NCBI GenBank assembly: GCA_963765575.1
Contig: CAVXWZ010000005.1
Span: 96,001-160,000 of the forward strand
Source of the DNA: an uncultured cyanobacterium
Lineage (GTDB): Bacteria > Cyanobacteriota > Cyanobacteriia > PCC-6307 > Cyanobiaceae
Direction of reading: 5' to 3'
Length of the DNA stretch: 64,000 nt
In this document: positions 2,174 to 24,529 of the stretch, in pieces
Layout: each line of letters begins with the position of its first letter
Position numbering within the stretch: the stretch's first letter is position 1
Notes under the pieces: generated by a model
Databases searched by the model: none
The model's input: only the letters and a program-made list of their open reading frames with translations
Told to the model about the DNA's origin: nothing
Translations under genes and position numbers: made by a program

Positions 2174-3832
2174 TCAGGCCACGGCTGTGGGGACGCCTGC
2201 CGCCAGGGCCTCCTGGGCGTGCTTGAGCAGGGTGGCCGGGGGCAGCGGCCCCTCCAGGTGCTGCCAGGGCAGCACGCGCTCCGGGCTCCAGGTGGCGTGG
2301 ATCACCTCCTCCCAGGGGGGTGGCGGCGGCAGCGCAGTGTCCGCGCTGCAGGACGGCGCCGGATCGTGCTCGCCGGCCAGCACGGCCCGGTAGGCCTGCT
2401 TCCAGCCCCCGAGGCTTTCGTGACGGCTGCGGGCGGCGGCGATCACCGGTGCCAGGCGCCGGTCGCTGCGCGAGATCAGGGCCTGGATCACGCTCCAGCC
2501 ATAGCTCTCGGGCCGCAGTTCGATGCCTTTGGGCCTGAGCCGTTTGGCCAGCAGTTTGAGGCGCTTGTCGGCCTCCGGTCGCACCCCCTGCCACTGGAAG
2601 GGGGTATGGGCCTTCGGCACAAAGGTGCTCACCCCCAGTGACAGCCGCAGACCCGGCGTGGCTTTCTTCAGAGCCAGCAGCAGGGCGGCGGTGGCCTCCA
2701 CATCGGCCTCCTCTTCGGTGGGCAGGCCCACCATGCCGTAGAGCTTCAGGCCGCTGAGACCTCCCTCCTTGGCATAGCGGGCGGCGGCGTAGATCTCCTC
2801 GCTGGCGAGCTTCTTGTTCACCACCTGGCGCATGCGTTCGCTGCCGCTTTCGATAGCGATGGTGAGCGACTTACTGCCCCGTTTGGCCAGGATCCGGCCC
2901 AGTTCGGGGGTCACGGTGGCGGCGCGCACCGAGCTCACGCTCACCCGCGTGTCCTCGAAGCGGTCCTGGTCGAGCCAGCCCAGCAGCTCCGCGAACTGGG
3001 GGTGCTGGGTCACCGACGCCCCCAGCAGCCCCAGGCGCTGGGTGGCGGCCAGGCCCTTCTCCACTGCCGGGATCAGACCGTCATCGAGGCTGGGGGTGCG
3101 GAAGGGCAGGGTGAGGTAGCTGGCCAGGCAGAAGCGGCACAGCTCCGGACAGCTGCGCACCACCTCCACCATGTGGATCGACGGCCAGGCCGCCGCCGGG
3201 GTGATCACCGCCGAGTGGCTGAGGGTGTTGCCCCGCCAGGTCTGCTTGGCCACGGTGGCCGGGATGCCCGGCTCTTTGGGCTCCACGGCCAGCAGTTCGC
3301 CCTCGCTGCCGTAGCGGGGGGCGTAGAGGCTGGGCACATACACGCCCGGCACCTGGGCCAGTTGGCGCAGCCGTTCAGGGCGCGGGGCCTCCCGGCAGGC
3401 CTGGAGGGCATCGAGGAAGGCGGGCAGCAGCAGTTCGCCATCGCCGAGCAGCACCACGTCGAAGAAGGGCGCCAGCGGTTCGGGGTTGGCGGTCAGCACC
3501 GGGCCCCCACCGAACACGATCGGGTCGCCGTCGCCCCGTTGCTGGCTCCACAGGGGGATGTGCTGGCGCTCCAGCAGCTCCAGCAGCACCGGTCCGTCGA
3601 GCTCCCAGCTCAGGGACAGGCCGAACAGATCGAGCCTGCGGTGGGGCGGATCGCCCTGGTCGGTGAACAGACGGCGCACATCCACATCGGGCCGCTGGGC
3701 CAGGGTGGCCCACACCACCTGGTAGCCCAGGCTGGTGATGCCCACCGAATAGGTGCTGGGGAAGGCCAGCACGGTGCGCAGTGCCCAGGGCTGGGGCACT
3801 GCGGGCGTGAACAGCAGCGTTTCCTGATCCAG
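2174..3832 (-). CDS. B12-binding-domain radical SAM protein
   Basis: CPELCRFC (CxxxCxxC), GGPVLTANPEP; frame extends upstream to LDQETLLFTP (CTG), start uncertain. Confidence 0.9.
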   Translation of the reverse strand: MDQETLLFTPAVPQPWALRTVLAFPSTYSVGITSLGYQVVWATLAQRPDVDVRRLFTDQGDPPHRRLDLFGLSLSWELDGPVLLELLERQHIPLWSQQRGDGDPIVFGGGPVLTANPEPLAPFFDVVLLGDGELLLPAFLDALQACREAPRPERLRQLAQVPGVYVPSLYAPRYGSEGELLAVEPKEPGIPATVAKQTWRGNTLSHSAVITPAAAWPSIHMVEVVRSCPELCRFCLASYLTLPFRTPSLDDGLIPAVEKGLAATQRLGLLGASVTQHPQFAELLGWLDQDRFEDTRVSVSSVRAATVTPELGRILAKRGSKSLTIAIESGSERMRQVVNKKLASEEIYAAARYAKEGGLSGLKLYGMVGLPTEEEADVEATAALLLALKKATPGLRLSLGVSTFVPKAHTPFQWQGVRPEADKRLKLLAKRLRPKGIELRPESYGWSVIQALISRSDRRLAPVIAAARSRHESLGGWKQAYRAVLAGEHDPAPSCSADTALPPPPPWEEVIHATWSPERVLPWQHLEGPLPPATLLKHAQEALAAGVPTAVA

Positions 3833-14633: not shown

Positions 14634-15896
14634 TCAGGTGCCGGCATTCATGCGCCGGGCACCGCCTGCCACCACCGCGGCCACGCCCAGCAGCAGGCTG
14701 AGGCCAAGCCAGAAGGGACTGGTGCGGCCGAGGGTCTCGTAGGCCAGCCCCGCCAGGGCGGGGCCGATGAAACTGCCCAGGCTCTGCAACCCCTGCAGGC
14801 TGCCCAGGGCGGCCCCCTGGCCGCTGTCGTCGAGGCGGCGCGACACCTGGGCGCGCAGGCAGGGGGTGACCAGGCCGGTACCCAGGGCCAGGATCGCCAC
14901 CGCTGGAAACACCACGCTGCGGGAATTTTCGGCCGTGGCCAGGAGGATCAGGCTGCAGCCGCTGATCACGAAGCCGATGCCCGCCAGGGTGAGACGCCAC
15001 TCCCCGAAGCGTGCCACCAGCGGACCGATCAGGCCCCCCTGCACCAGCGTGGCCACCACCCCCACGACCACGAAGGCGGCCCCGGCCAGCCCCGGCCCCC
15101 ACCCGAACTCCTGTTTGAAGTAGAGGATCAGCACGGCAGCGAAGCCGTTGAAGGCGAGGAAGAAGAGAAAGAAGGCCGCGCACAGACGCCGCACCTGGGG
15201 ATTGGCAAACACCCGGGACAGCTGGGTGAAGGGCTGCAGTTCGCGCTTGCGGGGCAGTGGGATGCGGGACTCGATCGGGTGGGTTTCCGGCAGCAGGGTG
15301 ATCACCAGCACCAGATTGAGCACCGCGATGGCCACCGCCACCAGCATCGGCAGGTTCACGTTCAGCTGCCCCAGCAGACCGCCGAGGGCGGGGCCGAGGA
15401 TGAAGCCGAGCCCGAAGGCCACACCGATCAGGCCGAAGGCCTTCGCCCGCTGCTGCGGTGGCGACACGTCGGCCAGCACGGCGCCGGCGGTGGCGGCCGT
15501 GCCGCCGCTGACGCCGTCGATCAGCCGGGCGACGAACAGCAGGGCCAGGGGCAGGCTGGAGCCGGCGGCCCAGGGCAGGCGTTGCCAGTCGGTGGCGATC
15601 GTGAGCGCGAACAGCCCCAGACCCACGACCGAGCCGGCCACGCACAGGGCGATCACCGGCCGGCGTCCGTAGCGATCACTGAGGGCGCCGATCAAGGGGG
15701 TGGCGGCGAACTGGGCGAAGGCATAGCTGCCGGTGAGCAGGCCCAGCACACGCCCGTCGCCGGTGAAGCCAGCCAACAGGAACGGCAGCAGCGGAAAAAT
15801 CAGCGTTTCGCTCAAGCGGTCGTTGAGCAGGGTGAAAAAGGCGCAGAGGAAGGCCGCGCGGCGACGGGCCGGGCTGATCTGGGGCTGCACGGTCAA
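14634..15896 (-). CDS. MFS transporter, TetA/DHA1-like
   Basis: Motif A GALSDRYGRRPV, GFILGPALGG; TTG/GTG start overlapping upstream stop. Confidence 0.9.
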   Translation of the reverse strand: MTVQPQISPARRRAAFLCAFFTLLNDRLSETLIFPLLPFLLAGFTGDGRVLGLLTGSYAFAQFAATPLIGALSDRYGRRPVIALCVAGSVVGLGLFALTIATDWQRLPWAAGSSLPLALLFVARLIDGVSGGTAATAGAVLADVSPPQQRAKAFGLIGVAFGLGFILGPALGGLLGQLNVNLPMLVAVAIAVLNLVLVITLLPETHPIESRIPLPRKRELQPFTQLSRVFANPQVRRLCAAFFLFFLAFNGFAAVLILYFKQEFGWGPGLAGAAFVVVGVVATLVQGGLIGPLVARFGEWRLTLAGIGFVISGCSLILLATAENSRSVVFPAVAILALGTGLVTPCLRAQVSRRLDDSGQGAALGSLQGLQSLGSFIGPALAGLAYETLGRTSPFWLGLSLLLGVAAVVAGGARRMNAGT

Positions 15897-16861
15897 TGGG
15901 CCACCAGCACGCGGTGGCGGTGGTCGGAGGCGACGCAACGGATGTGGCTGAAGCCCGCCTGGCGCAGGGCGGCCTCCATATCGAGGGCGAAATAGTCGCC
16001 CAGGTAGGGCTCGGTGCTCTTGAGCAGGGTGGCCAGGGGGGCCGGCATGGCGCGGATGCTGGGCGAGCGGGGATCCTGGTCGACCATGGCCAGCACCCCA
16101 CCGGGACGCAGCAGCCTGGCGGCCTCCTGGAGCACGGCGATGGTGGCTCCGGCCGGCAGCTCGTGGCACACGAACTGCAGGGTGATCAGGTCCACACTGG
16201 CGTCCGCCAGGCCGCTGGCCTCGGCCGCGGCATGGTGCCAGCTGGCGATACGGCCCTGGCGGTCGCGCACCCTGGCCACCGCCAGCATGTGGGGGGAGAG
16301 GTCGAGGCCGCTGACGCGCACGGGATGGCCCTGGTGGGCCTCGATCCAGTCCTTGAGCAGCAGGGTGCTGATGCCCACCGAGCAGCCCAGATCGAGGGCC
16401 TCGTGCACCGGCCCCGTGAGGCTGGGCTCGATCGCCGCGAAGATGGCGTCGCGCATGCGGGCCTGGGCAGCCTCGGGGCTCAGCGGCTCCTCCTTCCACA
16501 CCCGCAGCGCCACCGAGGCCGTGGCCTGCTCCGCCTCGCAGGCCGCCTGCCAGCAGAGGTTGCCCTCGTCGTAGGCGTGGAAGCGGGCCCGGTAGTAGGC
16601 CGGGGTGGTGGTGAGCGGATTGATGCAGGCAGCCAGCAGCGGTTCGGCCCGGCGCTGCAGTTCATCGCGGCGGGCCCGCCAGGGGATGCCCCGCTGCTCG
16701 GCCGTGCGGATCATCATCCGCCGCGCCTGCTGGAACAGCAGCTGGCGCAGGGGCTCCACCGCCAGCACGGCGGCGATCAGCCGTCCCAGGGGGCTGGCAT
16801 CGTTGGCCCAGTTGGGCGGGGCGGCGACGGTGGCTGCGGGCGGGGTGCCGGCGGCGGGCAT
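15893..16861 (-). CDS. Class I SAM-dependent methyltransferase
   Basis: LDLGCSVG, GLDLSPHML, LLRPGG; the N-terminal extension to 17275 in the ORF track is not part of the gene. Confidence 0.9.
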   Translation of the reverse strand: MPAAGTPPAATVAAPPNWANDASPLGRLIAAVLAVEPLRQLLFQQARRMMIRTAEQRGIPWRARRDELQRRAEPLLAACINPLTTTPAYYRARFHAYDEGNLCWQAACEAEQATASVALRVWKEEPLSPEAAQARMRDAIFAAIEPSLTGPVHEALDLGCSVGISTLLLKDWIEAHQGHPVRVSGLDLSPHMLAVARVRDRQGRIASWHHAAAEASGLADASVDLITLQFVCHELPAGATIAVLQEAARLLRPGGVLAMVDQDPRSPSIRAMPAPLATLLKSTEPYLGDYFALDMEAALRQAGFSHIRCVASDHRHRVLVAH

Positions 16862-16924
16862 GGGGTGGCGCTGACTGGGGGAGCAGGGGGCATCATCGCG
16901 CCGCCGCCCAGGGCCTGAGGGCTG

Positions 16925-17005
16925 CAGGCTGAGGCCGAAGGGCTGATCGCCATGGCGCCGCAGACCCTGGCGCTGGTGCTCGCCAGGGAGGCCCCGAAGG
17001 GTGAT
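16925..17005 (+). pseudogene. moaC: moaC fragment (cyclic pyranopterin monophosphate synthase)
   Basis: QAEAEGLIAMAPQTLALVLAREAPKGD resembles MoaC segment A.AEG.I.M...TL......KGD. Confidence 0.7.
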
Positions 17006-17008
17006 GGG

Positions 17009-17075
17009 CTCGGTTCTCTCGCCGGAGCCGATCTGCTCCCGGGGAGCGCGGCCGCGCCGGGGCCGCTGGAGGCCG
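17009..17075 (+). pseudogene. moeA: moeA C-terminal fragment, fused in frame to the moaC piece
   Basis: LGSLAGADLL...GPLEA resembles MoeA C-terminus (GSL..AD.LL.......L.AG). Confidence 0.55.
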
Positions 17076-17165
17076 CCGCCATCGGCCAGCCACGCCCGAT
17101 TCCAGAAGGGCGCCCGGGGGACGCGTAACAGGTTGTGCCAGGTCTCCAGAGCCTGCAGCGGCTGG
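17071..17165 (-). pseudogene. moaE: moaE fragments (molybdopterin synthase large subunit), internal deletion
   Basis: QPLQALETWH (cf. L.ALELEHY) joined to APFWNRAWLADGGG (cf. APFWKRE/KE...DG). Confidence 0.7.
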
Positions 17166-17178
17166 GAGGGCCCTGGTC

Positions 17179-17232
17179 CCAGCCGGACCGCTCGGGCAGG
17201 GCGGCGCACAGCAGCACGCGCAGCTCCGGGGT
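17179..17232 (-). pseudogene. moaD: moaD N-terminal fragment
   Basis: LRVLLCAALPERSGW resembles MoaD N-terminus V.VL.FA.LRE.AG; C-terminal GG part absent. Confidence 0.65.
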
Positions 17233-17299
17233 GTGGCCCGTGGCCCGTGGCGGCAGGGGTGGCGGTGGCCTCCACAATGGCTGCAGCGTCCGCGAAGCG

Positions 17300-17447
17300 G
17301 TGGCAGTGGCGGTGGCGTTGCTCACGGTGTCGGACAGGCGCACCCGGGCCATCGCGGGGTTGGGCGAGCTGTCCCTGCTGCTGTCGTTCGAGACGGTCGG
17401 CACGAGCAGTCTGCGGAGCCGCGGCTGCCGCGGCTGGGAGAGCCTGT
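17300..17447 (+). pseudogene. moaB: moaB/mog fragments, large internal deletion
   Basis: VAVALLTVSDRRT joined directly to IAGLGELSLLLSFETVGTSSLRSR (cf. I.GFGELFR.LS...IGTS..QSR); central TGGTG motif missing. Confidence 0.8.
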
Positions 17448-17508
17448 GGATCAGCCGGCGGGACGGGGTTGATCCAGGGCCTCGTTTGCGGCTGGAGCCC
17501 GAGGGCCG

Positions 17509-18783
17509 ATGAACCCCGTCGTCTCGCTCACAACCATGGCCCTCTCCCTGCGCCGCAGACTTGCTGTGGTGCTGGTCGGCGTTGGGCTGGCCCTGGCCCT
17601 TGCGCTTCCCAGCCCCGCTCCTGCGCAGACTGAAACCCCGGGAAACGACCCGGTGCTGCATGTGTTCTGGAGCCTCGGCTGCCCGGTGTGCATCCGGCAG
17701 AAGCCGTGGATCGAGGAGCTGGAAGCACGCTTCCCCGGCCTGGAGGTGGAGCAGATGGAGTTGTCACAGACGCCGCGTTTTCGGGCGCGGTTTGAGGAGA
17801 TGGCCGCAGAGCGGGGCGTGAGCGCCAGCTATGTGCCCACGCTGATGCTCGGTCCGCGCGCCTGGGTGGGGGACACCCCCGCCCAGCGCGCCGAGATCGA
17901 GACGGCGATTGCGGCGCTGCTGGCGGGCCAGGACCCAGCGCCCGACGCGCGCGAAAGCCTCACCCTGCCCCTGCTGGGCGAGGTCGACCCTGCCGCCGCC
18001 TCGCTGCTGGGGCTCACCGCGCTGATCGCCGTGGTGGATGGCTTCAACCCCTGCTCACTCTGGGTGCTCACCCTGCTGCTGGGCATGGTCCTCGCCTCGG
18101 GGTCGCGTCAGCGGCTGGCCGTTGTGGGCATCACCTTTCTGCTCACCACCGCCCTGATCTACGGCGCGTTCATCGCCGGGCTGTTCAGCGTGCTGGCTTT
18201 TGCCTTTGCCCTGCCCTGGGTGCGCTGGATGGTGGCCCTGTTCGCGCTTGGCTTCGGGCTGGTGAACATCAAGGATTACGTCTGGTATGGGCGAGGGGTC
18301 AGCTTTTCGATTCCCGAGCGCGAGAAATCCGGCATCTATCAGCGCCTGCGCCGCCTGCGGCAGCAGCCGATGACCATGCCCGTGCTGATTGGCACCACCG
18401 TGGCCATGGCGGCGGGCATTTCGCTGGTTGAACTGCCCTGTACGGCGGGATTTCCCGTGCTCTGGTCGGGGATCCTGGCCGAGCGGGATGTGAGCCGGGC
18501 GGGGTTTGTGGCCCTGCTGGCGGTGTATGTGCTGATCTATCTGATCGACGAGTTGGCGATCTTTGCGATCGCCGTCACCACCATGAGCCTGGGGCGGATG
18601 GGCGAGCGCCATGGCCGGGCGCTGAAGCTGGTGGGTGGCACGGTGATGGTGGCCCTGGCCGGGGCGCTGGCGCTGCGGCCCGAGCTGATGGACGATCTGG
18701 GCGGGACGCTGGGGCTGTTCGGTTCAGCCCTCGCCCTGGCGGCGCTGATCCTGATCGCACAACGCCCCACGACAGCGGCCTGA
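17509..18783 (+). CDS. Signal peptide + thioredoxin/glutaredoxin-like domain fused to CcdA/DsbD-like membrane domain
   Basis: CPVC and VPT (cis-Pro) in N-domain; DGFNPC and ELPCTAG Cys motifs in multi-TM C-domain. Confidence 0.8.
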   Translation: MNPVVSLTTMALSLRRRLAVVLVGVGLALALALPSPAPAQTETPGNDPVLHVFWSLGCPVCIRQKPWIEELEARFPGLEVEQMELSQTPRFRARFEEMAAERGVSASYVPTLMLGPRAWVGDTPAQRAEIETAIAALLAGQDPAPDARESLTLPLLGEVDPAAASLLGLTALIAVVDGFNPCSLWVLTLLLGMVLASGSRQRLAVVGITFLLTTALIYGAFIAGLFSVLAFAFALPWVRWMVALFALGFGLVNIKDYVWYGRGVSFSIPEREKSGIYQRLRRLRQQPMTMPVLIGTTVAMAAGISLVELPCTAGFPVLWSGILAERDVSRAGFVALLAVYVLIYLIDELAIFAIAVTTMSLGRMGERHGRALKLVGGTVMVALAGALALRPELMDDLGGTLGLFGSALALAALILIAQRPTTAA

Positions 18784-18852
18784 GGGGCCCCTCACCCCTC
18801 CCCTCCTCCAGGCAGGACCCTGCCCGACCTGCCGAGGCGGTGGTGGCTGCGT

Positions 18853-19113
18853 GCGCATGTTTTTCGCGAGGACCGGAGCCGCGCGGAGCGGAGCACCCGC
18901 ATCGTGATGCTGTCACCGCGGTCACGATGGTTGCCGGGATCGTGGCCGGCAGCGTCTACGGCTCCACGGCCCTGCCAGCCATCGGCATCACGATCGTCGC
19001 CTACCGCTGAGAGCGCCGGCACGCCGCCGATCCGCGCTTCAGCTTCGGCACCGGCAAGGTGGGCGTTCCGGGCGGCTACACCAGCGCAGCAGCAGGCTCA
19101 CTACAAGGCCCTG
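18853..19113 (+). pseudogene. dmeF: Collapsed CDF-family Co/Ni efflux transporter (DmeF-like) remnant
   Basis: AHVFREDRSRAERSTRIVML / frameshift / TAVTMVAGIVAGSVYGSTAL / deletion / AIGITIVAYR*ERRHAADPRFSFGTGKVG..GGYTSA / HYKAL. Confidence 0.8.
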
Positions 19114-19173
19114 CCGCGGCGCCGGCTCACGCCCGCAAGCCCTGGCCGCATCGCGATCCGGCTCGGGGTGGCA

Positions 19174-20274
19174 TCAGCGATCCACGTCTTCGCCACCGGC
19201 CATGAGCCCCTGGCGCCAGGTCAGCAGCTTCAGCAGCGTGGCCTTCACCGCTCCAGTGGCGATCAGCTGCCGGGCCTGCTGCACAGCTTCCGCCTGCGTG
19301 CAGCTGCGATCGCTGAACCAGAGGTAGCAGCCGCCATTCCAGATCAGTTGCTTGGCCAGCGGGCCGTTGCCTTCGAGTGCCTCGGCGGCCGCGCCAACCC
19401 AGGCCCGTTCACTCTCCCAGGCCAGATCAGGGCCGTAGCAGTCGTGGTCGCGGGGGTGCAGGATCAGCCGCTGGCTGCCGCTGTTGTCCACCATGGCGGT
19501 CACACAGGCACGGCTGGTGGGCAGGTCGGTGCTGCCCTCGAGGCCCTTCACCGTGACGATCTGATCTTCGCCCGCGAGCTGCAGGGCCTGCCAGGCCCGG
19601 GCTTCGGTGGGTGGGTGAACGAAGCCGCTGATCAGAAGATGCTCGCCCTGGTGTGCTGTCCAGAGCAGCTCCAGGCTGGCCACCGGCGGCCGTTTGCCCA
19701 GATCCTCCCGGTAGGGGATCAGTGACTGGGCCAGGGGGAAGTGATCGGGCTGGTGCAGCAGGGCCAGGCCGTGGGTCTGGAAACCCTCCTGCACCCTCTC
19801 GATCGGCAGGCCACCGAGATCGAGACCGAGCGCGGCGAACAGCTCCCGTGCCGTGACGCCGTATTTCACGGGCATGCGCTCGCCGCCGGAGAGCACCACC
19901 GGCCGCCCGGCCGCCAGCAACAGCAGCGCCGTGAGCGGAAACACCGGCGCGGTGCGGCTGCGCCCATCGAAGGGCATCCCGAAGCACAGGGGCGGGGACG
20001 ACGCTCCTGCAGGGCCGGCGCCAGTGAGCTGGGGGCCCAGCAGCCGGTAAGTGTCGAGCATGCCCGCCAGCTCCTGCGGCTCGGGCCGGCGGATGCGATG
20101 GGCGATCAGAAAAGCGCCGATCTGGGCTGGGGTGGCGCCACCGTTGAGCATCAGGTCCAGCGACTCGGCCGCCTCCTGGCGGCTGAGGCCCTTGCTGGTG
20201 TGTTCGCCACTGCCGATCTTGCGCAGCAGCTGCTTGAAGCGTTGCCGTTGGTCGTCGCTGACGGCCACCGCCAT
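19174..20274 (-). CDS. Anthranilate phosphoribosyltransferase-like / glycosyltransferase family 3 protein (CnaT/YbiB-like)
   Basis: [33 protein letters not shown]; located in nitrogen cluster. Confidence 0.85.
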
Positions 20275-20480
20275 GGCCGCCGGCAGGGGGAACGTCCCGG
20301 GCAGCGACCCGACGGAGCCCTGGCCTGTCTGCGCTGTTGAGGGCCCCATGGTCAACGCTGACGCTCCCGAAATCCAGGCAATGCGGTGGCCATGACCTCC
20401 TGGGGCCAGCCTGGCTTGCCGGACTGGAGTTTCGCGGAAAGCACCGAATTCATCGTGGACCAGCGCCCGCCCGGCATCCT

Positions 20481-20522
20481 GTAGCGGTTGCTGCCGGAAG
20501 GCCTGGCCTGCCGGGGAAGACT
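20481..20522 (+). promoter_or_regulatory. Putative NtcA-type promoter of cynS
   Basis: GTA-gcggttgc-TGC, 22 nt, AAGACT (both elements one mismatch from consensus). Confidence 0.5.
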
Positions 20523-20549
20523 CCTGTTCGCACCTTGAACACCTCTTCG

Positions 20550-21008
20550 ATGGCCGACTCCCTTCCCTCCTCCCAGGCTGTGACAGCTGCCCTGATGGCC
20601 GCCAAGAAGAGTCGTGGCCTCAGCTTTGTTGAGCTGGGGGAAGCGCTGGGCCGCCATGAGGTGTGGGTGGCCTCGCTGTTCTATCAACAGGCGACCGCCT
20701 CCGCCGATGAGGCCGCCCGGCTGGCGGAGGTCCTGGGTCTCGATGCCGGCACCACCGCAGCCATTCAGGAGTTTCCCACCAAAGGATCCCTCGATCCCGT
20801 GATCCCCACCGACCCGCTGATCTACCGCTTCTACGAGATCATGCAGGTGTATGGCATGCCGATGAAAGATGTGATTCAGGAGAAGTTTGGCGATGGCATC
20901 ATGAGCGCTATTGATTTCACCCTTGCTGTGGACAAGGAATCGAATCCTGCTGGTGACCGCGTGAAGATCACGATGTGCGGGAAGTTCCTTCCCTACAAGA
21001 AATGGTGA
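20550..21008 (+). CDS. cynS: Cyanase
   Basis: [30 protein letters not shown]. Confidence 0.97.
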
Positions 21009-21055
21009 TCCAGCTCTGAGTTTCTCTCAAGTCTGAGTTTGCCACAGATGGCAGA

Positions 21056-21084
21056 AGCCGGACCCAGCATGACTGGATCCGGCT
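21056..21084. terminator. Stem-loop between convergent cynS and focA
   Basis: agccggacccag-catga-ctggatccggct, 12-bp stem with one mismatch; no U tract. Confidence 0.45.
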
Positions 21085-21181
21085 GACAGACGATCCATGA
21101 TCGCTAGGGATATCGAGGAGTATGGGAAACGGCATGGCGGAAAGCCCACTTCAGGGGGCCCCAGCTTGAGCCGGCCCAGCC

Positions 21182-22063
21182 TCAGCGGGCACCCAGCTCT
21201 GCAGCCAGTTCCCGCTCCAGCTTTTCATCATGCTTCAGAGGCAGCACGTTGCTCATCGGTGAGCGGTGCGTGCTGTAGAAGAGCATGCCGATGAAGACCA
21301 TTCCACCCACGATGTTGCCGAGGGTGACGGGAAGATAATTCCAGAAGACGATCTGTCCGAACCCCACCCCGGAGCCCAGCAGTGGCCCAGTGGTGTGCAG
21401 AAACATGTTGACAACGATGTGCTCCATGCCGAGGGCTTGGAAGGCGGTGATCGGTAGCCAGCAGGCCATGATCTTGCCGGGGACACTCTTGCTCACCAGA
21501 GCCAGGGTGACGCCGAGGCAGACCAGCCAGTTGGCGATTACGCCGCGCAGGAAGGCTAGGAAAAAACCCAGTACGCCCAGGTCCTGATACTTGACAATCA
21601 CGTTGGCCTTGTTGAGGCCAATGATCTTGTTGGCAACGGCGACCCAGTCTCCTGTGCCGGCAGCCAGGTCTGCTGTGCCGCCACTGGTGAGGCTGATGGC
21701 AAAGAGGATGCCCACAAGGCCGGTGCCGAGAAAATTACCGATCCACACCCAGATCCAGTTGCGGATGGTTTTGCTCCAGGTGGTCTTTCCGGCCCAGACC
21801 GCCATGGGAAGCAGGGCAAAATTGCCGGTGACCAGCTCCATGCCGAAGAGCACAATGCTGGCGAATCCAAATGGGAAGATGAAGGATCCGATCCACGGAA
21901 TCCCGGTCTGATGCATGATTGTGAGGGCCAGGCACAAGGCCAGCCCAAGGGCTGATCCAGAGTAAAAACCGCGAATCAATAGATTCTTGGTGCTGACACT
22001 GGACTTCTTGCCGCCGGCGGCAATCATGCCCTCGACAAGCTCATTGGGTAAAACGTAATCCAT
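21182..22063 (-). CDS. focA: Formate/nitrite transporter family nitrite channel (FocA/NitM)
   Basis: ELVTGNF, GNFLG, ANWLVCL, EHIVVNM, TLGNIVGG. Confidence 0.93.
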   Translation of the reverse strand: MDYVLPNELVEGMIAAGGKKSSVSTKNLLIRGFYSGSALGLALCLALTIMHQTGIPWIGSFIFPFGFASIVLFGMELVTGNFALLPMAVWAGKTTWSKTIRNWIWVWIGNFLGTGLVGILFAISLTSGGTADLAAGTGDWVAVANKIIGLNKANVIVKYQDLGVLGFFLAFLRGVIANWLVCLGVTLALVSKSVPGKIMACWLPITAFQALGMEHIVVNMFLHTTGPLLGSGVGFGQIVFWNYLPVTLGNIVGGMVFIGMLFYSTHRSPMSNVLPLKHDEKLERELAAELGAR

Positions 22064-22108
22064 CAAACAGGAGGGGAAGAGGTTGCTGGCTGTGTCGCTG
22101 GTTCAGCC

Positions 22109-22279
22109 TTAACGGCTGATGCGATTCATGAATCGGCTGAAAGGATCGTCCTGGCGTGCTTCCAGGGGCTGCAGGCGATCTGAGACCGTGGCTGATGGCG
22201 GCGCGTCAGGTTGGTCGCTGCCCTGGGTGCTCAGCCAGTTCATGAGGCGAGAAAAGGAATCCTGTTTTGGTGGGGTCAT
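22109..22279 (-). CDS. 56-aa small protein with duplicated FSR(L/F)MN motif
   Basis: MTPPKQDSFSRLMNWLS...RQDDPFSRFMNRISR; co-oriented immediately upstream of focA. Confidence 0.7.
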   Translation of the reverse strand: MTPPKQDSFSRLMNWLSTQGSDQPDAPPSATVSDRLQPLEARQDDPFSRFMNRISR

Positions 22280-22486
22280 GGTGGGTGCGCTGTGCTGGCA
22301 ACGGTGCGATCGCAGGCCAAGCGATCCGTCCCTGTGGACAAGGGATGGGTGGCAGGGGTGCTGGATGGGGTCAACCGATGCGGCAGGAACAAGCGGCGCG
22401 ACGGTCAACGGGAGACTGACTCAGCGCTTCAAAAGAACAGCGTCGCTGAGTGTGTCTATTGATGGCTGAAAGGTCACGACGTTGTT

Positions 22487-22500
22487 GTGCTGACCGTTAC
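22487..22500 (-). promoter_or_regulatory. Putative NtcA box upstream of small ORF-focA
   Basis: Minus strand GTA-acggtcag-CAC. Confidence 0.55.
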
Positions 22501-22530
22501 GAAACTCCGAATTCCCGTGGCTGCCAGCCC

Positions 22531-22752
22531 TCAGCCGGCGCCCACCAGCGTTTTCCACCAGCGCCGGGCCCCCTGGCGCAGCATCCGACCCACGATTGTC
22601 ATGGCTTGGACATCACGCTCGATCCCCTCGCCGCGGGGCACGTTGGCTGCACGGCTGCGCGGCGCCGGGCCGGGACCGAGTGGACAGCTCGCCTGCAATT
22701 CGGGGTGGCCTGCCCGTCTGGAGCGGGGCAGAACGCGATCAGGCGGTGCCAT
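22531..22752 (-). CDS. Possible small hypothetical protein
   Basis: ATG-initiated 73-aa ORF ending in an amphipathic-looking tail EGIERDVQAMTIVGRMLRQGARRWWKTLV. Confidence 0.3.
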   Translation of the reverse strand: MAPPDRVLPRSRRAGHPELQASCPLGPGPAPRSRAANVPRGEGIERDVQAMTIVGRMLRQGARRWWKTLVGAG

Positions 22753-22859
22753 TGATGGGATCGGGACAGAGGCAAGCCTGACTACAGCAGCTCTGGGTGA
22801 GATGCTGGGGTGATCGTTGTAACCGCTGGGTCCACCGGCGGGCGGCCTTGAAGGGCATT

Positions 22860-22895
22860 CCGGCGCTGTTGCCGGTGCTGTTGCCGGCGCTGTTG
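22860..22895 (+). repeat. 12-bp tandem repeat x3 (ccggYgctgttg) abutting nirA NtcA box
   Basis: ccggcgctgttg ccggtgctgttg ccggcgctgttg. Confidence 0.75.
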
Positions 22896-22937
22896 GTAGT
22901 GCTTGCCACACGGAAGCGCAGCAGCCCCGATCAGCAT
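22896..22937 (+). promoter_or_regulatory. Putative NtcA-type promoter of nirA
   Basis: GTA-gtgcttgc-CAC, 22 nt, CAGCAT; 32 nt before ATG. Confidence 0.65.
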
Positions 22938-22969
22938 CAGTGCCCGCTTCCCGTGCTCGGAACCTCCCC

Positions 22970-24529
22970 ATGGACGACAAGACGCTGCCGGTCCCGGGCA
23001 CCCCGGCCCTGAGCAAGGTTGAGCAGGCCAAGGCCGAGCTCTGTGGCCTGGACCTGGAGCCCAGGCTGGCGAATCTGGCCGCCCAGGGCTGGCAGGCCCT
23101 CGATGAGGCCACCCTCACCATCCGCCTGAAGTGGTTGGGAATCTTCTTCCGTCCCGTGACACCCGGGCGGTTCATGCTGCGGCTGCGGACGGCCAACGGT
23201 GTGATCCGATCCGAGCAGTTGGCGGTGCTGGCTGAGGCCGTGGACCGCTGCGGGGAGCATGGCAGCGCCGACATCACCACCCGTCAGAACCTCCAGCTGC
23301 GGGGCCTGTTGCTGGAGGACATGCCTCCCCTGCTGGCGGAGATGGAGCGGGTGGGGCTCACCTCACGGCAGTCGGGCCACGACAACCCGCGCAACATCAC
23401 GGGCAATCCCCTGGCGGGCATCGACCCGGAGGAGATCGTGGACACCCGGCCGCTGGTGCAGGCGATCCAGAACACCCTGCTCGGCGCCGGCGGGCCCCGC
23501 AACCTGCCTCGCAAGTTCAATGTGGCGGTGGGCGGAGCTGCCGACAGCTTCCTGCTGCACAACGACCTGGCCTTCCTCCCCGCCGAGCGCGATGGAGAGC
23601 AGGGCTTCACGGTGATGGTGGGCGGCTTTTTCTCCGCCCAGCGCAGTGAGCTGGCCATCCCCTTGGGCCTGTGGCTGCGGGCTGAGCAGTTGCCAGGGTT
23701 CACCCTGGCGTTGCTGTTGCACTACCAGGAGCACGGCAACCGCCAGCAGCGCAACAAGAGCCGTCTGATGTATCTCATCGACCAGCTCGGCCTGGAGAGC
23801 TACCGCGAAGCCGTGCTGGCGGCCTGGCGGCAGCAGGTGGGTGACGGGGCCGTGGCGCCTGCCCATGACGGCTCCCACCGGGTGAATCGCGCCCCGCGGG
23901 ATGGCCTGGGGGTGAACGCCCAGAAACAGGCGGGCCTGCACTGGCTGGGGCTGCACGTGCCGATGGGACGGCTGGATGCCGCCGCCATGGCGGAGTTGGC
24001 GCGCCTGGCCCGCACCTACGGCAGCGGCGAACTGCGCTTCACCGAGGCCCAGAACGCCCTGATCGTGGACGTGCCCAGCGAGCAGCTGGGCGCATTGCTG
24101 GCGGAGCCCCTGCTGCAGGGTCTGCGGCCCGAACCGTCCGCCCTGCAGGCGGAGGCGGTGAGCTGCACCGGGAATGCCTACTGCGGCTTTGCCCTGATCC
24201 CCACCAAGGGGAAGGCCCAGGAGGTGCTGGAGCAGCTGGAGCAGCGGGTCGAGCTGCCCCATGCCGTGCGCATGCACTGGACCGGCTGCCCCAATGCCTG
24301 CGGCCAGCCCTTCATGGGCCAGATCGGACTGATGGGCGCCAAGGCACGCAAGGACGGCGAGATGGTGGAGGCCGCCAAGATCTTTCTGGGCGGATCGATG
24401 GGAGCCGAGCCGAAGCTCGCTGAACTCCATGGCCAGGCGGTGCCCCTCAGCGACCTGCCCGATGTGCTCGAAGCGTTGCTGGTGGAGCGCTTCGGGGCAC
24501 GGCGCCTGATCAGCGCTCCCGTCAGCTGA
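22970..24529 (+). CDS. nirA: Ferredoxin-nitrite reductase
   Basis: DITTRQNLQ, LPRKFNVA, CTGNAYC and GCPNAC siroheme-[4Fe-4S] ligands. Confidence 0.97.
   Translation: MDDKTLPVPGTPALSKVEQAKAELCGLDLEPRLANLAAQGWQALDEATLTIRLKWLGIFFRPVTPGRFMLRLRTANGVIRSEQLAVLAEAVDRCGEHGSADITTRQNLQLRGLLLEDMPPLLAEMERVGLTSRQSGHDNPRNITGNPLAGIDPEEIVDTRPLVQAIQNTLLGAGGPRNLPRKFNVAVGGAADSFLLHNDLAFLPAERDGEQGFTVMVGGFFSAQRSELAIPLGLWLRAEQLPGFTLALLLHYQEHGNRQQRNKSRLMYLIDQLGLESYREAVLAAWRQQVGDGAVAPAHDGSHRVNRAPRDGLGVNAQKQAGLHWLGLHVPMGRLDAAAMAELARLARTYGSGELRFTEAQNALIVDVPSEQLGALLAEPLLQGLRPEPSALQAEAVSCTGNAYCGFALIPTKGKAQEVLEQLEQRVELPHAVRMHWTGCPNACGQPFMGQIGLMGAKARKDGEMVEAAKIFLGGSMGAEPKLAELHGQAVPLSDLPDVLEALLVERFGARRLISAPVS

Follow-up and report, generated by a model that had tools for sequence, protein, structure and literature searches.

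A short remnant of a molybdenum-cofactor (moa) gene cassette at 16920-17483 very probably records how a nitrate cluster of the freshwater type gave way, by horizontal transfer, to one of the marine type, after which the native, and by then redundant, moa cassette decayed neutrally over a long time. As read from the sequence, this scar would mark a swap of genes and not a loss of nitrate use. The window, i.e. the whole stretch of DNA that was analysed, comprises 64,000 nucleotides (G000:C5:96001-160000) of a 2.71 Mb genome (G000) in 11 contigs, which is 99.97% complete with 1.08% contamination.

By jump alignment, the scar is collinear with the intact moaC-moeA-moaE-moaD-moaB cassette of close relatives, and its pieces lie on the same strands as the native genes (moaC, moeA and moaB plus; moaE and moaD minus). 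The alignment scored 612; 40 shuffled sequences averaged -32 and reached at most -12, and the best of 40 stretches taken elsewhere in the window scored 22. At least seven deletions of 107-1519 bp each shrank a cassette of approximately 3.16 kb to approximately 0.54 kb, 17% of its length, and this number is a minimum since nested events can hide in one junction. With G011 as the reference, the deletions measure, in order, 118, 1519, 107, 297, 230, 219 and 133 bp (2623 bp in total), leaving pieces of 90, 61, 44, 62, 174, 69 and at least 42 bases; an identical set of seven sizes was obtained with G010. There is at most one small indel, and it adjoins a junction.

The left anchor is an intact gene for a SAM-dependent methyltransferase (15893-16861, minus strand; Pfam Methyltransf_11), identified also by synteny as the gene that adjoins moaC in intact relatives. 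It is followed by the native spacer upstream of the methyltransferase (16862-16919) and by the 118-bp deletion, which took the moaC start. An internal piece of moaC (16920-17009, plus strand; 79/90 identical to G011, Pfam MoaC profile positions 13-42) leads into the 1519-bp deletion, and a near-3' piece of moeA (17010-17070, plus strand; 51/61 identical, approximately codons 394-414 of 429) into the 107-bp one, at the junction of which a 5-nt repeat is found. On the minus strand lie a 3' piece of moaE (17071-17114; 40/44 identical, approximately codons 132-146), the deletion of approximately 297 bp, a 5' piece of the same gene (17115-17176; 48/59 identical, approximately codons 14-33) and, past the 230-bp deletion, codons 1-22 of moaD (17177-17241), with the start codon changed from ATG to ACG. 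The native divergent moaD/moaB spacer (17242-17299) lies within the largest surviving piece (17177-17350), which spans the 5' ends of both genes and is identical to G011 at 157 of its 174 positions. On the plus strand, moaB codons 1-17 (17300-17350) retain their GTG start and end at the 219-bp deletion, possibly two nested events; a middle piece (17351-17419; 59/69 identical, approximately codons 91-113) ends at the frameshifting 133-bp deletion, and the 3' end of moaB (17420-17483) still carries the native stop codon at 17470-17472.

The initial annotation had described a moaC-moeA-moaE-moaD-moaB cassette eroded by many internal deletions, and the tiling, its controls and the substitution pattern (see below) agree with that description. 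All eight peptide motifs searched were present where, and on the strands on which, it had placed them, and the breakpoints that it proposed to map on intact relatives gave the same seven deletions with either reference. Its inventory was right for the pieces listed but overlooked the 118-bp deletion at the moaC start and the third moaB piece. The annotation hazard to which it pointed is real, as a minus-strand frame of 460 aa (15893-17275) crosses the scar into the methyltransferase. Profile methods recover little of the remnant: its moaC piece gave the single Pfam match over the scar (E 0.041), permissive MoaE and MoCF_biosynth searches of the genome did not retrieve it, and tblastx against its own genome returned only low-complexity noise among the matches listed.

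In a DNA search of 32 genomes of the genus the scar matched intact moa cassettes, with 81-93% identity in the best relatives. The neighbourhood is the same as well, as moaC directly follows the ppk-MFS-methyltransferase genes on one contig in G011, G010, G007, G041 and G045. Among named records, the nearest ones to share the native moa genes carry the label Cyanobium or Synechococcaceae. The titles of two further records (L105 and L127), Chitinophaga pinensis and Asaia bogorensis, look wrong; both have the gene order of picocyanobacteria and cluster with Cyanobium and Vulcanococcus.

An assembly artefact is extremely improbable as the source of these junctions. Among metagenome contigs of four (X1, X2, X3 and X7) of 14 runs, from three studies, six of the seven junctions are bridged (junction 2 in X3; 3, 4, 6 and 7 in X1; 4 and 5 in X7; 7 in X2), the exception, which speaks for an artefact, being junction 1 (16919/16920), for which no bridge was found among the contig pieces listed. 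The bridging contigs differ from the scar by 2-7 letters per piece, and for this reason point to other strains, although a relation between one of the runs and the source sample is conceivable; the run labels are marine, marine sediment and freshwater sediment. Furthermore, the scar pieces are about one-third different from the second moa copy of this genome on contig C11, discussed below.

The pattern of substitutions is that of a sequence released from selection. Changes specific to the scar affect 9/141, 20/143 and 13/122 of codon positions 1, 2 and 3, respectively, whereas only 1-5 position-2 changes were counted in the eight intact relatives. Position-2 changes in the G000 genes flanking the scar were 4/390 for the MFS gene, 12/692 for ppk and 9/320 for the sigma factor, and a Fisher test of the scar against these three genes only gave P 2.5e-10; the methyltransferase (22/303) and the membrane protein gene (8/365), which stood outside this test, are still below the value of the scar. 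Position-3 change was 11-13% in the four flanking genes with 8-9 rows. Since all positions of the scar are as changed as the third positions of working genes, the data suggest that it has been without constraint for most of the terminal branch of G000, third positions not being fully neutral. As to working genes, the remaining 17% of length, the changed second positions and the lost moaD start are not what such genes show. The scar (16920-17461) is still 75% G+C, and, with 18 A/T-to-G/C changes balanced by 19 G/C-to-A/T changes, it has not drifted towards A+T.

It might be argued that the remnant was kept for the sake of the downstream membrane protein gene (17509-18783, plus strand), to which it would supply a promoter in the moaD/moaB spacer and a 70-codon frame beginning at the old moaB start. 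The largest surviving piece does cover the spacer, the frame (17300-17512) stops in an ATGA overlap with the start of the membrane protein gene, as intact moaB does in G042, and the sister genome G008 lost the membrane protein gene together with the whole stretch. However, conservation of the spacer piece does not significantly exceed that of the rest (14/174 versus 39/357 changes, P 0.36); a frame has one chance in three of ending at that place, and in this sequence of 75% G+C each of the six frames contains long open stretches; the native moaB stop in this lineage lies 36 bases before the start of the membrane protein gene, with no overlap; and there is no promoter consensus, a scan of 16800-17600 for promoters and terminators having found none, with no sigma-70-like site in the 17242-17299 spacer. 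Such a role, which would account for no more than one or two pieces out of seven, is considered unlikely. The membrane protein itself, an intact native product which we take to be thioredoxin-like, has 424 aa, a signal-peptide-like start, a CPVC (CxxC) motif and a multi-pass membrane part, and gave weak Pfam hits only, with no Pfam or NCBIfam family over cut-off. Its gene lies 3' of moaB in G041 and G042 and, among the loci mapped, was found only in G000, G007, G041, G042 and two named records.

From the scar the initial annotation had concluded that nitrate utilisation was lost, and this conclusion is contradicted by the rest of the genome. A search of the whole genome for intact moa and narB genes, which had been suggested there, returned the full set, so that the pathway loss fails while the scar stands. 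On the 801-kb contig C11 (415,240-425,630), full-length moaA, moaB, moaC, moaD, moaE, moeA, mobA, narM, narB and nrtP are present without internal stops; the MoaB, MoaC, NarM and NarK-family transporter products pass the NCBIfam cut-offs, the others matching their families below cut-off. The nirA, focA and cynS genes are intact within the window, and contig C1 carries the gene of a second molybdoenzyme (FdhF/YdeP type). Judged by these features, the C11 nitrate genes would be working ones. The absence of native mobA, narM, narB and nrtABCD from the locus, along with the failure to find any remnant of them in the genome, would suit a lineage that had ceased to make the molybdenum cofactor and to use NarB; with a complete second set at hand and another molybdoenzyme gene on C1, that the scar marks such a loss is very improbable.

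The block on C11 occupies an interval of 15.3 kb, bounded by a hydrolase-like gene on one side and by the 3' end of a tRNA-Arg(TCT) gene (C11 430,498-430,571; also L182) on the other. The corresponding gap is less than 1 kb in G010 and G007, while G008 has an unrelated island of approximately 15 kb there, so that this tRNA gene is a site of islands, the contents of which are unrelated in the two genomes. A search for an att repeat at the C11 island was negative, the last 10-18 tRNA bases being without a second copy. G008 carries a related block (77-84% DNA identity) at another site and without moaA, and its moaA falls outside the group of the G000 gene. Next to the imported moaA, a tauE/safE-like gene (G000:C11 ~425,600-426,200; L023:5600-6200) has a deletion of approximately 255 bp and ends early, the G008 product being of 248 aa.

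Trees and identities tell which of the two copies is the native one. Over 454 coding columns, identity of the scar with the eight native rows in its clade lies at 82-87%, compared with 67.5% for the C11 copy of its own genome; the scar falls inside the native clade with support of 99/99, and a tree in which it was constrained with the C11, G008 and L154 sequences was rejected (p-AU 0.024). The reference tree was built from five conserved genes beside this locus, and as a test it is limited because all five are linked and flank one locus. It places G000 and G008 as sisters (99/99), in a clade with G011, G045, G010, G007, G020, G042 and G041 (100/100). With moeA, moaB, moaC, narB, nirA and the trpD-like gene, G000 again pairs with G008, but outside the native groups; cobA and cbiX do not place the pair there, and look native. 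Among the best 80 of 432 loci the closest match is that of a metagenome-assembled genome (L154: NarB 85%, NrtP 88%, FocA 90%, MoeA 75%), in which moaA-mobA-nrtP-narB-nirA-narM-moa-trpD-cynS-focA-cobA lie in one piece; nirA does not group with L154.

These relationships also bear on whether an old duplication within the genome, followed by differential loss and with no horizontal transfer, could have left one decayed and one intact copy. Duplicates of the cassette do occur in this clade, as G007 and G041 have two native copies around the membrane protein gene, and G042 has a remnant beside an intact copy. However, the duplicates of the relatives belong to the native clade; the C11 copies, approximately 67% identical, group with G008 and L154 instead, and paralogy would call for repeated losses of nrtP and focA in seven relatives. 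It is therefore quite improbable, and horizontal transfer would be the cause of the discordance.

The transporters agree with a replacement by horizontal transfer. Across the 32 genomes of the genus, nrtP turned up in 7, namely G000, G008 and five more distant ones, and in none of the seven closest non-sister relatives; NrtC/D over cut-off was found in 23 of the 32, including all these seven clade-mates (86-100% complete) but not G000 or G008. Thus, the seven closest non-sister relatives have nrtABCD, while G000 and its sister have nrtP and focA. At the native site, beyond the membrane protein gene, a second scar (18818-19162, plus strand) consists of pieces of a gene for a DmeF-type CDF metal exporter, which sits between moaA and mobA in several relatives. 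This exporter gene has undergone three deletions (33, approximately 550 and approximately 65 bp) and the loss of a single base, and has gained a TGA at 19008-19010; the second scar may also include a 26-30-bp piece of the 5' end of native moaA on the minus strand; no intact copy of the exporter gene was found in the G000 genome. Then follow, at 19174-24529, the trpD-like gene (minus), cynS (plus), focA/nitM (minus) and nirA (plus), of which trpD-like and nirA fall outside the native clade and focA was found, among the loci screened, only in G000, G008 and L154. In G008 the methyltransferase gene abuts the trpD-like gene, with no moa remnant found at this junction.

With replacement followed by erosion as the preferred reading, the ancestor would have been a Cyanobium-like picocyanobacterium with a vertically inherited, freshwater-type cluster beside ppk-MFS-methyltransferase, in the order moaC-moeA-moaE-moaD-moaB, membrane protein gene, moaA, dmeF, mobA, narM, narB, nrtABCD, trpD-like, nirA. 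The lineage of G000 and G008 would then have gained a marine-type cluster from a more distant picocyanobacterium, presumably in one acquisition shared by both. The imported trpD-like and nirA genes, with focA, would have taken the place of the native genes in situ, and the nrtP-narB-narM-moa-mobA block would have been placed elsewhere, in G000 within the 15-kb insertion described above for tRNA-Arg(TCT). With selection on the spare native moa genes thereby lifted, the cassette would have been trimmed in G000 by seven or more deletions, which were probably distinct events and frequently lay at 3-6-nt repeats, and G008 would have lost the whole moa stretch. Because the sites of the block differ in the two genomes and the G008 moaA groups apart, the cluster may have been acquired once and moved later, or acquired twice, from related donors.

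A role of microhomology in the deletions may be proposed, and its apparent strength depends on the way of counting. A strict count gave 9 bases versus 6.4 expected (P 0.22) with G011 and 8 versus 6.5 (P 0.34) with G010, while a looser, post hoc count (the longest run at most 8 bases from each break) gave 22 versus 14.7 (P 0.014) and 25 versus 15.1 (P 0.002), the two references not being independent. In the moaB remnant of G042, an independent deletion ends at the same base as deletion 7 of the scar, at a repeated 8-nt word. This remnant is part of a small independent scar (L070, G042:C76, ~2835-3145) in which deletions of 102 and 219 bp have split moaB into three pieces; apparent (by eye) starts of the membrane protein and methyltransferase genes come next, and then intact moaC. 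In G041 (C109, C194; L064, L065) and in G007 (C12, C42; L061, L063) two native moa cassettes flank the membrane protein gene. One copy of G041 lacks moaC-moeA (1369 bp) and the other moaE-moaD and the moaB 5' end (1037 bp, a deletion common to G007), and, given this reciprocal loss, each gene survives once. A further case, L087 (G006:C104), has moaE and moeA split by apparent frameshifts, which may reflect assembly errors since the nearby acnB is likewise split and the genome is 78% complete.

With deletions of 1369, 1037, 102 and 219 bp, the spare native copies of G041, G007 and G042 have each undergone one or two such losses, and this favours stepwise erosion over a single catastrophic repair or replication event with several jumps. 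The latter would account for the presence of at most one small indel beside seven large deletions, and for the lack of intermediates (none in two exact-pattern scans of metagenome contigs and none among the bridging contigs listed). However, all jumps are forward and collinear, and the dmeF remnant and the tauE-like gene of G000 have been eroded in the same style, so that a single event is quite improbable. As no intermediate form was found, the order of the deletions is something that we can only infer.

Xenologous gene displacement means that orthologous genes gained by horizontal transfer take over from a native set, and here the intact copy is discordant with the tree of the neighbouring genes while the native copy has decayed at its ancestral site. 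Unlike such displacements in general, a whole pathway would have changed along with its transporter, partly in place and partly as an island, and the displaced cassette is still readable. In the portions of the cited work taken into account here, the Prochlorococcus nitrate cluster, which adjoins ppk, is described as shaped by vertical descent, loss and recombination among close kin, with non-homologous acquisition being rare, and one cell is described that had lost the transporter and molybdopterin genes by deletion (Berube et al. 2019, PMC6370341). The scar locus resembles that cluster in its position beside ppk and in its set of moa genes; it differs in that the working copy of G000 is discordant in the trees and lies in a tRNA-linked insertion, with the native copy persisting as a remnant.

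As regards transporters, nrtP and focA (nitM) are classed as marine or brackish genes and those of the ABC transporter nrtABCD as freshwater ones in the relevant parts of PMC4390861 and PMC9361551, the reason for the split being called unknown in the latter; it may not be absolute, as nrtABC is found in marine clade III (PMC9948718, in the part considered). The nrtP and focA of G000 and G008, and the nrtABCD of their seven closest other relatives, follow this split. As far as these sections go, the two papers describe a distribution, whereas G000 shows a swap within one clade, with the remains of the displaced cluster present. In the mainly open-access literature searched, no report of the scar or of the swap was found, though supplementary gene tables could already show the nrtP/nrtABCD pattern for these strains.

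A survey of indels in bacterial pseudogenes reports, in the part considered, a power-law distribution of sizes, a small number of indels longer than 15 nt, and 171 deletions out of 396 with microhomology (Danneels et al. 2018, PMC6054270). The scar shares with that set the bias to deletion, and microhomology may likewise have acted at part of its junctions, but it differs in having seven deletions above 100 bp and at most one small indel; it is one locus, picked because it had collapsed, and the two sets are not directly comparable since the published method left out multi-gene deletions. The same choice of collapsed loci applies to the ratio of the seven deletions to approximately 42 substitutions in the coding columns scored. 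The event is of a known kind, and what is unusual about it is the swap of transporters and the excess of mid-sized deletions.

A more far-reaching reading, which is tentative and on balance doubtful, takes the scar as a dated fossil of a freshwater-to-saline swap (nrtABCD out, nrtP/focA in) and also as a sign of a general clearing of redundant DNA in free-living picocyanobacteria, by 30-300-bp deletions at very short repeats, at approximately one per 6-8 point substitutions and far commoner than 1-15-bp indels. If true, this would speak for selection for DNA loss or for an end-joining repair route, unlike the small-indel spectrum of other bacterial pseudogenes. Such remnants offer a means of measuring deletion sizes in a free-living, high-G+C bacterium. 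For annotators, it is evident that a scar at an ancestral site does not prove the loss of a pathway, and that an open minus-strand frame can append approximately 140 false residues to the methyltransferase. Above all, the locus would provide a step-resolved and readable case of a picocyanobacterium going from freshwater to marine nitrate uptake, in contrast with Prochlorococcus, in which, by the portion of PMC6370341 considered, non-homologous acquisition of the nitrate pathway is rare.
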